Shown: positions 22,384 through 25,085 of the stretch, one piece after another
Layout: every line of letters starts with the position of its first letter
Numbering within the stretch: position 1 is the first letter of the stretch
Origin: Gammaproteobacteria bacterium
Lineage (GTDB): Bacteria; Pseudomonadota; Gammaproteobacteria; UBA12402
Assembly (NCBI GenBank): GCA_050123375.1
Contig: JASFHF010000004.1
Location: forward strand, 5,116-69,115
Length of the DNA: 64,000 nucleotides
Direction: 5' to 3'
Translations under genes and position numbers: made by a program
The notes under the pieces: model-generated
Database searches by the model: none
The model's input: the letters and a program-made list of their open reading frames with translations, nothing else
What the model was told of the DNA's origin: nothing

Positions 22384-22599
22384 AATAAATTCTCCTTTTA
22401 ATTAAATAATAACACGAAGCGGCTGCTCCGCACTATGCTACAAGAGTACGGTTTGTTGGTGCAACTGTCAAATTTTAATTGAAAAAAATGTAAAAAAATC
22501 ATGAGCTTGCATAATTTTTAGCCAGTTCCAGCGCTGCAGCTAATAAGCTAAGATGGGCGATAATAGGAAATAGCATAGTAAAATATTTTTACATTTTTA

Positions 22600-22628
22600 T
22601 TGACAACTATTTTTACACATACTATTTT
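22600..22628 (+). promoter_or_regulatory. sigma70-like promoter (TTGACA -35, 17-nt spacer, TATTTT -10) for the HTH-Panacea/toxin operon
   Basis: Perfect -35 hexamer with correct spacing; repeated TTTTTACA motifs around it may be an operator for the HTH protein. Confidence 0.4.
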
Positions 22629-22652
22629 ATGAATATAGCAGGAGGTGATCAT

Positions 22653-23435
22653 ATGCATGCAAAATTTATTAAGCAATTACGCAAAAAACTTCAGTTAACC
22701 CAAGAATATCTTGCAGAACAATTGGGTATATCTCGTCCTACTTATATACAGTTAGAACGCGGTGAGCGTGATTTAACTGTACCTGAGGCGGAAAAACTAG
22801 CCAAAATTTTTGGATTGCGTTTAGAAGATTTTTTAGCTGAAAATATACCTAATATATCTATTGAAATAACTAAAGCTGCAATTACAGTTAAAAAACCAAA
22901 GAATGAAATTAGAATCAACATACCGCAACAAAAACTTGATAAGTTTAAGCAAGTGTTACTTTATATTTTAAAAAAAGTAGGTGGCAAACCAAATATTGGT
23001 ATGACTGTAATCTATAAATTGCTTTATTTTATAGATTTTGATTATTATGAGAAATATGAAGAACAGCTTATGGGGTTGGTTTTTATTAAAAATCATTTCG
23101 GTCCAACTCCGGTTGTATTTGAAAAAATTATTCAACAAATGATTGATGATAATCAAATTGAGCGAATTAAAAGTAAATATTATAAACATGAGCAAACTAA
23201 GTATTTAATTAATCCGGAAATAGAACCAGATCTTAGTATTTTAAATGGTCAGGAAATAGAACATATTGATTGGGAGTTACAGAGATTATCAAGTCTTAAT
23301 GCCGCGACGATTTCTAATCTTTCACATAAAGATATTCCATGGGTTGGTGCGCAATTGGGAGAACAATTAGATTATGAGGCGGTTTTTTATCGTACCGCTG
23401 ATACTTCCGTACGGAATTATAATAATGATGATTGA
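22653..23435 (+). CDS. HTH-XRE DNA-binding domain fused to Panacea (DUF4065, SocA/PanA-like) domain; candidate type II antitoxin
   Basis: GGAGGT RBS 7 nt upstream of the ATG at 22653 (the ORF track starts at 22629). N-terminal LTQEYLAEQLGISRPTYIQLERGER HTH. Central KLLYFIDFDYYEKYEEQLMGLVFIKNHFGPTP resembles the Panacea/DUF4065 core. Confidence 0.65.
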   Translation: MHAKFIKQLRKKLQLTQEYLAEQLGISRPTYIQLERGERDLTVPEAEKLAKIFGLRLEDFLAENIPNISIEITKAAITVKKPKNEIRINIPQQKLDKFKQVLLYILKKVGGKPNIGMTVIYKLLYFIDFDYYEKYEEQLMGLVFIKNHFGPTPVVFEKIIQQMIDDNQIERIKSKYYKHEQTKYLINPEIEPDLSILNGQEIEHIDWELQRLSSLNAATISNLSHKDIPWVGAQLGEQLDYEAVFYRTADTSVRNYNNDD

Positions 23436-23799
23436 ATATAGTGAAACTAACGGATTTAAAAAAGATTTTAAAAAATTAAGTAAAAAATTTAAAACACTTG
23501 CAACAGATTTGGATGTTGCAAAAAAATATGTAATAGAATTATTTCATTTAAATAATATTGATAATCAAAGTGTTGTTCAGGTGCCTGGATATGCGAACGA
23601 CTTTTACCAAATTTATAAATTACGCAAATTTGCTTGTAAAGCTTTAAAAGGTAGAGGGTCCAAGAGCGGAATTAGAATTATCTATGCATATTATGTGAAA
23701 ATCTCAAAAGTTACATTTATCGAAATGTATTTTAAAGCCGATCAAGCAAATGCGGATACTAAACGAGTTAAAGAATTTATCAAACAGCAAAAGATTTAA
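23425..23799 (+). CDS. RelE/YafQ/HigB-like mRNA interferase toxin candidate
   Basis: Start ATGATG overlaps the antitoxin stop (ATGATGATTGA). MIEYSETNGFKKDFKKL resembles the YafQ/RelE N-terminus; GSKSGIRIIYAY is a RelE-like beta-strand motif. The tracked ORF start at 23374 is probably too far upstream. Confidence 0.55.
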   Translation: MMIEYSETNGFKKDFKKLSKKFKTLATDLDVAKKYVIELFHLNNIDNQSVVQVPGYANDFYQIYKLRKFACKALKGRGSKSGIRIIYAYYVKISKVTFIEMYFKADQANADTKRVKEFIKQQKI

Positions 23800-25085
23800 T
23801 TGTTTTTAGCCAGTTCCAGCGCTGCAGCTAATAAGCTAAGACGAGCGATTACTCCGTAGGCATAAAAACGATTATTAGATGCATCAGGTTTAGCATGCAG
23901 GTCTGGATCATTACAGCATTGCGCAAATGCCAACGGCTTGAAATGCATACCAGGAGCATTTAAGTTTTCTGTCGATCCTCGTTTTTTGTGAACGCGGTAA
24001 AATCCGCCAACTACATGATGCCCAATCATATATACTACAGGTTCGGCGTAAGCCCTGCCGATAGTTTCGAAAGTATAAATTCCTTCTTGTAGAATTACTC
24101 GATCAATTGATTTGCCGCCTTTAATTTTAGCCATGGTTGTACGTTGTTTGCGGTTTAGTTGCGATAATTCTTGCGGGTCACTGATCGTCATGACGCCCAT
24201 ACCATAAGTGCCGGCATCAGCTTTAATGATAATAAATGGTTTTTGGGTGATATTATATTCATCATATTTACGTTGAATTTTAGCGAATAAATTCACAGCA
24301 TTGGCAGTTATACATTGTAATCCTTCGCTTTTTAAGAAATTTATTTGATCACACTGATCAAATAAGGGATTAATCAGCCATGGATCAATGTTAATTAAAT
24401 TAGCAAATTCTTTAGAAATTTTTTGGTAATAATTGAAATGAGTTGCTTTAGATCGTTTATCCCAAGATAAAGTTAAAGGAGGCCGGATTTTTTGTTCAAG
24501 ATTTTGTAAGATTTCCGGGATGCCGGCAGAAAAATCGTTATTTATCCAAATGAAACAAGGGTCAAAATTATTGATAGTTATACAATTATTTTTGCGCTGA
24601 ATTGGTTCTAAATCCACTGAGCGACCAGAAGGTAATTTTATAGTTTGCTTGGTAGTTAAGTTTTCGATCAGTGAACCGATCCGTACTTCAAATCCAGCTT
24701 TGATAATTATTTCTTGCAAAGTGCATAAACTTTCTAAATAAAATAAATTTCGTGTATGACTCTCGGGAATTAATAAAATGCGTTTACTGCCAGTTTGACA
24801 TTGCTCAATGGTATCTTGTACAGCCTGAATGCAAAGTGGAATAAAATCACGATTCAGATTATTAAATCCCGCAGGAAATAAATTCATATCAACTGGCGCT
24901 AATTTAAATCCAGCATTACGTAGATCAACTGAGCCGTAAATTGGTGGTTGATGTTGTTGCCATTTATCGCGAAACCAGGTTTCGATTTTAACTTGCTGCG
25001 CTAAAATATGTTTTTCCAGTAATTCCAGCGGACCGCGCAAAGCGGTGGTTAAATGAGGCACTGTGGTAGTTTTTTGTTTGGTCAT
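23796..25085 (-). CDS. glutamate--cysteine ligase family protein (non-E. coli type) / ATP-dependent carboxylate-amine ligase candidate
   Basis: 429 aa; IIKADAGTYGMGV nucleotide-binding-like segment. Context (ctpA, envC, gpmI) is housekeeping. The family call is tentative and from memory of GshA-like families. Confidence 0.35.
   Translation of the reverse strand: MTKQKTTTVPHLTTALRGPLELLEKHILAQQVKIETWFRDKWQQHQPPIYGSVDLRNAGFKLAPVDMNLFPAGFNNLNRDFIPLCIQAVQDTIEQCQTGSKRILLIPESHTRNLFYLESLCTLQEIIIKAGFEVRIGSLIENLTTKQTIKLPSGRSVDLEPIQRKNNCITINNFDPCFIWINNDFSAGIPEILQNLEQKIRPPLTLSWDKRSKATHFNYYQKISKEFANLINIDPWLINPLFDQCDQINFLKSEGLQCITANAVNLFAKIQRKYDEYNITQKPFIIIKADAGTYGMGVMTISDPQELSQLNRKQRTTMAKIKGGKSIDRVILQEGIYTFETIGRAYAEPVVYMIGHHVVGGFYRVHKKRGSTENLNAPGMHFKPLAFAQCCNDPDLHAKPDASNNRFYAYGVIARLSLLAAALELAKNN

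Follow-up and report, generated by a model that had tools for sequence, protein, structure and literature searches.

The 64,000-nucleotide stretch analysed here (the window; contig JASFHF010000004.1 of the Gammaproteobacteria assembly GCA_050123375.1) carries a predicted toxin-antitoxin (TA) operon at the 3' end of gshA, the gene for glutamate-cysteine ligase. The operon lies between two 47-nt direct repeats that both represent this gene end. We are highly confident in the core of our account, namely that an old duplicative insertion took place, that the outer repeat copy is the original end of gshA, that the two copies have since evolved in concert, and that insertions with the same signature recur in the lineage. 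As to how the operon arrived, we tentatively favour a Campbell-type integration at the att-like gshA end that left a non-autonomous cassette, a reading to which we give a little less than an even chance. The comparison includes the metagenome-assembled genome JASFHH01 (L001), which was the one close relative found in a scan of species-representative genomes, a Logan contig (L163) and a metagenome contig (L081). The first two carry the insertion, and the third has the empty site. Three further loci (L161, L162 and L168) hold the TA cassette in unrelated contexts. The features of the gshA locus are the following:

22409-22436, minus strand: terminator-like hairpin 3' of the gshA relic, found by the terminator scan and located within the flank common to the empty site
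22499-22514, minus strand: original gshA tail and stop (..N-Y-A-S-S-*), which extends the relic frame (translation ...ELAKNYASS*)
22515-22561, minus strand: outer 47-nt repeat copy, the displaced original gshA 3' end (codons I413-K428), 45/47 identical to 23803-23849 and contiguous with the ancestral tail and flank as in the L081 empty site
22562-22577, plus strand: junction filler of 16 nt from the outer repeat to the start of the conserved TA cassette, differing among the window, L001 and L163
22600-22628, plus strand: promoter-like site of the TA operon, TTGACA-17-TATTTT (promoter scan, consensus match 10/12), kept in L163, L001, L161 and L168
22653-23435, plus strand: antitoxin gene, 260 aa, with an N-terminal HTH_3 domain and a SocA/Panacea domain (DUF4065); Pfam HTH_3 E = 5.4e-16 and SocA_Panacea E = 4.7e-16, both over the curated cut-off
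23425-23799, plus strand: predicted toxin gene, 124 aa, RelE/HigB-2-like fold; 11-nt overlap with the antitoxin gene, and a stop codon that overlaps the gshA stop
23803-23849, minus strand: inner 47-nt repeat copy, the functional gshA 3' end, which encodes IARLSLLAAALELAK in the 429-aa open reading frame (ORF)
23796-25085, minus strand: gshA, 429 aa (Pfam GshA, E = 2.1e-184), ending in ...LSLLAAALELAKNN with a new 2-residue tail, NN, after the repeat

The repeat has only two plus-strand occurrences in the window, at 22515-22561 and 23803-23849. Both copies are identical at 45 of the 47 positions (2 mismatches) with a perfect run of 39 nt, while the chance expectation for a 47-nt match was 0.00 in 100 dinucleotide-preserving shuffles. 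The original prediction had described direct repeats of about 60 nt at 22517-22575 and 23811-23870; the repeats are real and not due to chance, but their length is 47 nt and these coordinates are off by 2-21 nt. In the next 30 nt outside the repeat, compared in register, 9/30 positions agree on one side and 15/30 on the other, A-rich side, against a background of 8.2 ± 2.5, and thus the flanks show no clear excess. A longer original duplication of about 60-80 nt is not claimed: the two flanks with the 15/30 agreement (P about 0.01 compared to random window pairs) are both A/T-rich, and one of them is native toxin coding sequence. The repeat is not palindromic, with a self-reverse-complement score of 10.0 compared to 7.9 ± 2.5 in shuffles.

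The inner copy is, as had been predicted, the 3' end of the minus-strand gshA-like gene, while the outer copy, whose antisense translation reads ...IAHLSLLAAALELAKNYASS*, had been taken for a relic of the same gene end. This assignment is settled by L081, whose GshA is 80% identical to that of the window and whose gene, present with a single copy of the repeat sequence, ends in ...LELHKKYASL*. In L081 the end of gshA directly abuts the flank and a gene for a 67-aa membrane protein, which in the window lie beyond the outer copy. Since the tail and flank of L081 match those of the outer copy, it is the outer copy that represents the original 3' end, now displaced, whereas the gene currently uses the inner copy as its new end. 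The ancestral tail TTATGCAAGCTCATGA is kept in the relics of L001 and L163 as well as at the end of the intact L081 gene (..KKYASL*), and the tail past the inner repeat varies by carrier (NN*, CKK*, EVTEK*). The insertion left the same 47-49 nt of the gshA 3' end on both sides, and in the copy that adjoins the gene body the conserved C-terminal segment is retained. The hairpin at 22409-22436 is probably the native gshA terminator, now 1.3 kb away from its gene. Because this probable terminator now lies beyond the TA, gshA transcription may run antisense through the TA operon. A 16-nt inverted repeat (22484-22499 and 22583-22598, 94% complementary, AAAAATGTAAAAAAAT and ATATTTTTACATTTTT) brackets the outer copy. 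Its arms fall into the ancestral flank and into the TA promoter region, respectively, and TTTTTACA is repeated in the latter. The inverted repeat could be an operator-like motif, or could have arisen by chance in AT-rich DNA.

The same arrangement is present in three independent assemblies (window, L001 and L163), which rules out an assembly artefact. L001, whose GshA is 92% identical to that of the window, has the TA at the same place with the same duplicated gshA end, and the antitoxin of L163, the third carrier, is 88% identical. According to GshA identities the carriers group as ((window, L001), L163), with L081 and L083 as a sister clade, in which the empty site is seen in L081 only because the L083 sequence breaks off within gshA. 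The window and L001 share 87-88% of their nucleotides in the TA and 85-92% in the flanks. Among the carriers, the TA genes and gshA show similar synonymous divergence (dS; 0.37-1.0 and 0.70-1.18, respectively). The ratio of non-synonymous to synonymous divergence (dN/dS) lies between 0.06 and 0.13 in the antitoxin, between 0.13 and 0.16 in the toxin and between 0.05 and 0.07 in gshA. Judged from these values, both TA genes are under purifying selection, and a single old insertion in the common ancestor of the window, L001 and L163, followed by vertical inheritance, accounts for all three carriers. There is no sign of a currently mobile element, since the insertion is a single old event in three diverged genomes and has co-diverged with gshA.

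The two repeat copies do not evolve independently of each other. In the window the inner and outer copies differ at 2/47 positions and in L001 the inner and middle copies at 5/47, compared to 8-9/47 between orthologous copies of the window and L001. Four window-specific synonymous states (GCT, GCG, CTG and CTG) are found in both window copies and two L163-specific states in both copies of L163; L001 and the empty site have retained the alternative state in each case. The divergence is clustered in 10-12 nt at the gene-internal edge of the repeat. Given the age of the event and the non-coding nature of the outer copy, the shared states require repeated gene conversion or other recombination between the copies, which thus still recombine. 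A crossover between the repeats would remove the TA and restore a wild-type gshA consisting of body, one copy and ancestral tail (...GGAGTAATCGCT...GCTAAAAATTATGCAAGCTCATGA). An addictive TA would be expected to kill such TA-free segregants, and this would explain why gene conversion without crossover is the sole outcome observed.

The 1,241 bp between the repeat copies contain the promoter-like site, with its TTGACA hexamer, and two overlapping plus-strand genes, and nothing else, in agreement with the prediction of a TA pair with its own promoter. Both genes are co-oriented, and the pair is also kept in L001, L163, L161 and L162. In the antitoxin, the Panacea domain (PF13274) covers residues 121-230 and scores 60.2 bits against a cut-off of 25.7; the start codon is also used by the 100% identical database protein P0001. 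Exact-sequence searches with the GshA of the window, with the long antitoxin ORF and with a database protein of the same sequence as the MutM of the window returned no record. The antitoxin family has more than 7,500 matches at 60-88% identity in distant phyla, the cassette has identical boundaries in unrelated contexts, and the GC content of the cargo is 26-31% versus 30-42% for gshA. The operon, with its promoter, HTH-Panacea antitoxin (HTH, helix-turn-helix) and RelE-fold toxin, is thus a horizontally acquired and self-contained unit of predicted type II.

For the toxin, searches of Pfam and NCBIfam gave no match, and among 61 homologs only one touched PF06296 (E = 0.008), so that the protein has no match to a curated RelE/ParE family model. 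Its identity therefore comes from profile-to-PDB and structure searches. The protein has 465 relatives among cluster representatives, and a profile built from the 61 homologs matched Vibrio cholerae HigB-2 in the PDB (E = 1.3e-4, residues 67-119). A model by AF2 (AlphaFold) built on the homolog alignment reached a predicted local distance difference test score (pLDDT) of 96.9 and a predicted template modelling score (pTM) of 0.90. In a Foldseek search of the PDB with this model, the top 41 matches were without exception RelE-family toxins (41/41; RelE, HigB, YafQ, YoeB and relatives), at probabilities of 0.57-1.00 and target TM-scores of 0.45-0.69. Nearly invariant positions of the family are F11, L18, K20, D28, K65, G82, R84, E100, Y102 and K104. 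By its modelled structure, the 124-aa protein is a putative toxin with a RelE fold outside the curated sequence families, and hence the earlier label of the cargo as an HTH-Panacea antitoxin with a RelE-like toxin holds for the toxin at the level of the fold. By domain content the pair falls into the PanA class. PanA (Panacea/DUF4065) proteins are antitoxins of type II TA systems; an HTH was found in 343 of them, and HTH-PanA is a described class (Kurata et al. 2022, PMC8832971). The operon resembles these systems in the Panacea domain with an N-terminal HTH, the small co-oriented and overlapping toxin gene and the promoter of its own, but differs in that its toxin matches no Pfam or NCBIfam model and is connected to the RelE/HigB-2 fold only distantly, via profile and structure comparison. 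A further locus (L169, 6001-7970) provides a possible case of partner swapping among antitoxins of this family: the gene downstream of its HTH-Panacea antitoxin (76% identical) codes for at least 362 aa and takes the place of the small RelE-fold toxin. In L001 a 164-nt repeat (89% identical) is present upstream of gshA (9826-9989) and again between the antitoxin and toxin genes (11670-11833), where the coupling of both genes is lost and the C-terminus of the antitoxin is changed. The repeat has the appearance of a small non-autonomous mobile element.

The insertion at gshA is not an isolated case. A duplication scan compared all ORF 3' ends of the window (71/71) with the 9 kb downstream of each. 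Besides one match within a family of repeats similar to repetitive extragenic palindromic (REP) elements, only gshA (score 42) and mutM/copA (36.5) exceeded the control maximum of 16.5. The second of these hits, together with empty sites in relatives, bears out the suggestion that mutM shows the same signature. Its features are as follows:

2213-2257, plus strand: mutM 3' end, 45-nt repeat copy 1, 41/45 identical to 5800-5844
2258-5799, plus strand: U-box cargo, a single 1066-aa VWA and U-box gene (2511-5711) with its own flanks; Pfam VWA 1e-12, U-box 3.7e-8
5800-5844, plus strand: mutM 3'-end relic, 45-nt repeat copy 2, which is also the antisense coding 3' end of copA (5794-7974, minus strand)

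Empty mutM/copA sites are found in three relatives, L164, L165 and a 62.6-kb Joint Genome Institute (JGI) contig, where the convergent genes mutM and copA overlap by 48 nt. The 3.5-kb cassette splits this overlap with a duplication of 45 nt, so that both genes keep their ends and copA gains one codon before a new stop. The 62.6-kb contig probably also holds the HD-GYP protein of L001 described below; if so, the mutM site of the L001 lineage is empty and the gain of the U-box gene is specific to the window lineage.

A further case is the gshA site itself. In L001 a unit of 1,645 bp interrupts the relic. It contains one gene (12893-14281) for an HD-GYP membrane protein and is flanked by 38-nt repeats at 12720-12757 and 14365-14402 that are 36/38 identical. 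These repeats span the last codons of the relic, its stop and the tail, and overlap the TA repeat by about 20 nt, so that L001 has the TA and HD-GYP cassettes in tandem, separated by partial copies of the gshA end. Since the HD-GYP cassette is absent from the window, L163 and L081, it is a gain of the L001 lineage. Its only close homolog (73% identity) is located elsewhere, with the homology confined to the ORF, and provided no donor context. The pattern thus recurs in this lineage, at mutM and at the gshA site of L001. The gshA and mutM repeats are however unrelated (score 8.0 compared to 7.7 ± 1.2 in shuffles), and because they share no sequence, one site-specific enzyme cannot explain both loci. 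No clean background rate could be obtained from a scan of 168 loci (2.08 Mb), in which unrelated repeats at a spacing of 864 nt in loci of Thauera and Azoarcus made up most of the hits.

In the mechanism that we tentatively favour, a small circle with the TA operon and a stretch matching the gshA 3' end would have integrated by one reciprocal crossover at the att-like site, with a recombinase that acted in trans or has since been lost. What is left would be a non-autonomous cassette between repeats, similar to a cis-mobilizable element (CIME). In L001 the same gshA site would have been reused by the unrelated HD-GYP cassette (tandem accretion), and the unrelated gene end mutM/copA would have received the U-box gene by the same route. 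The strongest argument for a site preference is that a second, unrelated cassette in L001 used the same ~60 nt.

Several observations weigh against such an integration. The TA cargo has no room for arm-type sites, as only 39 nt separate the outer repeat from the -35 hexamer and only 3 nt the toxin stop from the inner repeat. The gshA and mutM repeats are unrelated and non-palindromic and would require at least two recombinases of different specificity. The repeats are not of uniform length (38, 47-49 and 45 nt), and the cargos are minimal, single transcription units that share no end sequences among the three cassettes (TA, HD-GYP and U-box). None of the three cargos, including the TA in the window, L001 and L163, contains an integrase, resolvase or transposase, and the look-up of a cognate integrase that the original prediction had called for recognised no recombinase in the 64-kb window either, where most ORFs were judged by N-terminal sequence and synteny only, so that this survey was not exhaustive. 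In the unrelated contexts (L161, L162 and L168) nucleotide homology of the TA cassettes starts at window position 22578, 17 nt inside the outer repeat. None of these three loci has a gshA-like segment in the cassette, and L161, the sole context complete on both sides, has no flanking repeat. Viral contigs were matched neither by the degenerate repeat pattern nor by the antitoxin, and plasmid and phage collections yielded only distant Panacea proteins (23-40% identity; the best plasmid matches, at 23-27%, were on Clostridium plasmids). A plasmid-addiction origin of the TA is without support in these collections. No element that uses the gshA site was detected in the window, viral contigs, plasmids or phages, in a clade whose genomes are barely sampled.

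Many of these points would fit a duplicative illegitimate insertion, which we regard as rather unlikely. The repeat would be copied from recipient DNA during insertion, when a staggered break is filled in or when replication switches its template to a point 40-50 nt further upstream, without a site-specific enzyme or incoming homology, and the survivors would be those insertions that left intact gene ends. This is in line with repeats of variable length that are unrelated in sequence and not palindromic, with arbitrary cargos of one transcription unit that lack shared ends, terminal inverted repeats and a recombinase, and with the presence of the TA cassette elsewhere with the same boundaries and no gshA fragment. 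Moreover, the duplication at mutM/copA covers nearly exactly the 48-nt overlap needed by both genes. Very long and variable target duplications are reportedly known from the IS1634 group, the first description of which is said to mention long, variable-length direct repeats in its title. To our knowledge, however, no enzyme inserts recombinase-free cargo with 38-49-bp duplications. A second, independent insertion in the same ~60 nt of L001 would also be very unlikely without site preference, and as its duplication lies in a non-functional relic, selection is no explanation for it. Finally, the HipA-type module in the dcw cluster of the window shows no duplication.

Transposition and palindromic sites can be set aside. 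A transposon or insertion sequence is ruled out because terminal inverted repeats and a transposase are missing and the duplication length varies (47-49, 38 and 45 nt); in agreement with this, no inverted repeats that pair the cargo ends were found. The repeat comparison likewise rules out a res-like or other palindromic site as well as one site common to gshA and mutM. In a comparison by eye, the gshA repeat showed no convincing match to the dif consensus.

A homology-driven exchange is the possibility to which we assign the least probability. Here, imprecise excision in a related strain would have produced a circle of the cassette and a short gshA fragment, and a RecA-dependent single crossover would have integrated it, with the repeat length given by the captured homology. 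The repeats are long enough for RecA-dependent recombination and, judging from their concerted evolution, do recombine; their extent differs by cassette, and the HD-GYP repeat includes the ancestral tail, which is present only at the gshA locus. On the other hand, an earlier unexplained event must first have placed the cassette beside gshA, and no donor arrangement was found, the sole close homolog of the HD-GYP protein being located in another context. Furthermore, 38-49 nt of homology is near the minimum for efficient RecA recombination.

The age of the insertion (gshA dS 0.7-1.2 between carriers) would also have left time for the decay of a large element. According to this explanation, an island, prophage or integrated plasmid with an integrase entered the gshA 3' end, and everything except the addictive TA was later deleted. 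We consider this clearly unlikely, although the repeats fit attL and attR, the loss of an addictive TA would be counter-selected, and precedents exist: stepwise streamlining has been proposed for TA-linked loci (PMC13617665), and the decay of integrative and conjugative or integrative and mobilizable elements (ICE/IME) to CIMEs has been described (PMC5704250). The proposal of decayed islands is strained by the fact that TA, HD-GYP and U-box cargos each consist of one transcription unit near-flush with the repeats, so that deletions would have to stop at the edges every time. The HD-GYP insertion is recent (36/38, L001 only) yet already minimal, the HD-GYP and U-box genes are not addictive, and no remnant of an integrase or backbone is visible in the three carriers.

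A broader explanation has, in our opinion, a low probability. The AT-rich, uncultured gammaproteobacterial lineage could possess a cassette-acquisition pathway that has not been described so far, in which single transcription units are inserted at gene 3' ends with duplication of a 38-49-nt target, without a recombinase, terminal repeats or a common site. A host or trans-acting enzyme that recognises a feature other than sequence, or processes of replication or repair, could be responsible.

In comparison with known systems, the locus resembles in its architecture elements inserted by integrases. Such insertions replace the 3' end of the gene, as e14 and phage 21 do in icd. Duplication of the 3' end of the target gene is the classic outcome of this type of integration, and the term CIME has been used for decayed remnants that are flanked by att sites and integrated in tandem (PMC5704250). 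The direct repeats of the gshA 3' end, the displaced original end on the far side, the single-copy empty site, the tandem cassette of L001 and the lack of internal recombination genes all agree with this. In contrast, no cognate integrase or parent element is known for the gshA site, the cargo is a single operon that leaves no space for arm sites, the gshA and mutM repeats are unrelated, and the two cassettes at the gshA site of L001 differ in repeat extent.

In Neisseria, single-gene cassettes between conserved genes are exchanged by transformation and homologous recombination; these minimal mobile elements are not known to duplicate their target. The insertions described here resemble them as single-gene or operon cassettes at a fixed spot between core genes with a content that varies among relatives, but every cassette here is flanked by a 38-49-nt target copy. 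The insertion has its nearest published counterpart in Photorhabdus, in which lone TA operons are found between duplicated 24-bp res-I-like palindromes with one copy at the empty site (Belot et al. 2026, PMC13617665). Both systems consist of a lone TA with its promoter between two copies of a sequence that is single at the empty site, with no mobility gene at the locus. The gshA repeats differ in being 47 nt of a coding 3' end, non-palindromic and not res-like, and no relative of the TA in the Tn3 family was found on plasmids.

As regards the entry of lone TA operons into chromosomes, the Photorhabdus study could trace only a few cases, all to res-like palindromes (PMC13617665). The gshA locus joins four features, a matching empty site, a duplicated coding 3' end without palindrome, a stacked second cassette and repeats that recombine while the TA is retained. 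The last of these fits the idea that addiction blocks repeat-mediated loss. The effector-like U-box insertion at mutM/copA suggests that the same route may supply the lineage with genes for host interaction. Given the age of the event and the lack of an identified enzyme, the practical value is limited. As far as the U-box gene and distant GshA matches indicate, the window may come from a Legionellales-like intracellular bacterium.

Some further observations concern the surroundings. In L001, about 8.7 kb (1297-10000) separate ctpA from gshA, which are only 11 nt apart in the window; ORFs in this segment, as judged by eye, resemble uronate isomerase, a sugar kinase and an aldolase of the 2-keto-3-deoxy-6-phosphogluconate (KDPG) type. 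At 20287-22131 the window has two consecutive ORFs that are 9 nt apart. The first, of 480 aa, contains an ACTMAP-like protease domain and three tandem repeats of 192 nt, and the second is 130 aa long. Because L001 has one 690-aa ORF here, the window gene is interrupted, either as a pseudogene or by a sequencing error. The HipA-type pair (36353-37986, minus strand) consists of a gene for a HipA-like kinase (Couple_hipA and HipA_C) and then an HTH_3 and DUF1488 gene, and lies inside the dcw cluster between ftsI-like and murE-like genes; no flanking duplication was found. Hairpin-forming intergenic repeats of about 84 nt, similar to REP elements or miniature inverted-repeat transposable elements (MITEs), are located at 27676-27843 (a perfect tandem pair), 32178-32261 and 34674-34757, and also at 14110-14139 and 56216-56245. 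Two tandem paralogs of 515 and 535 aa at 57622-60935, without a Pfam match, have short near-identical stretches in common.

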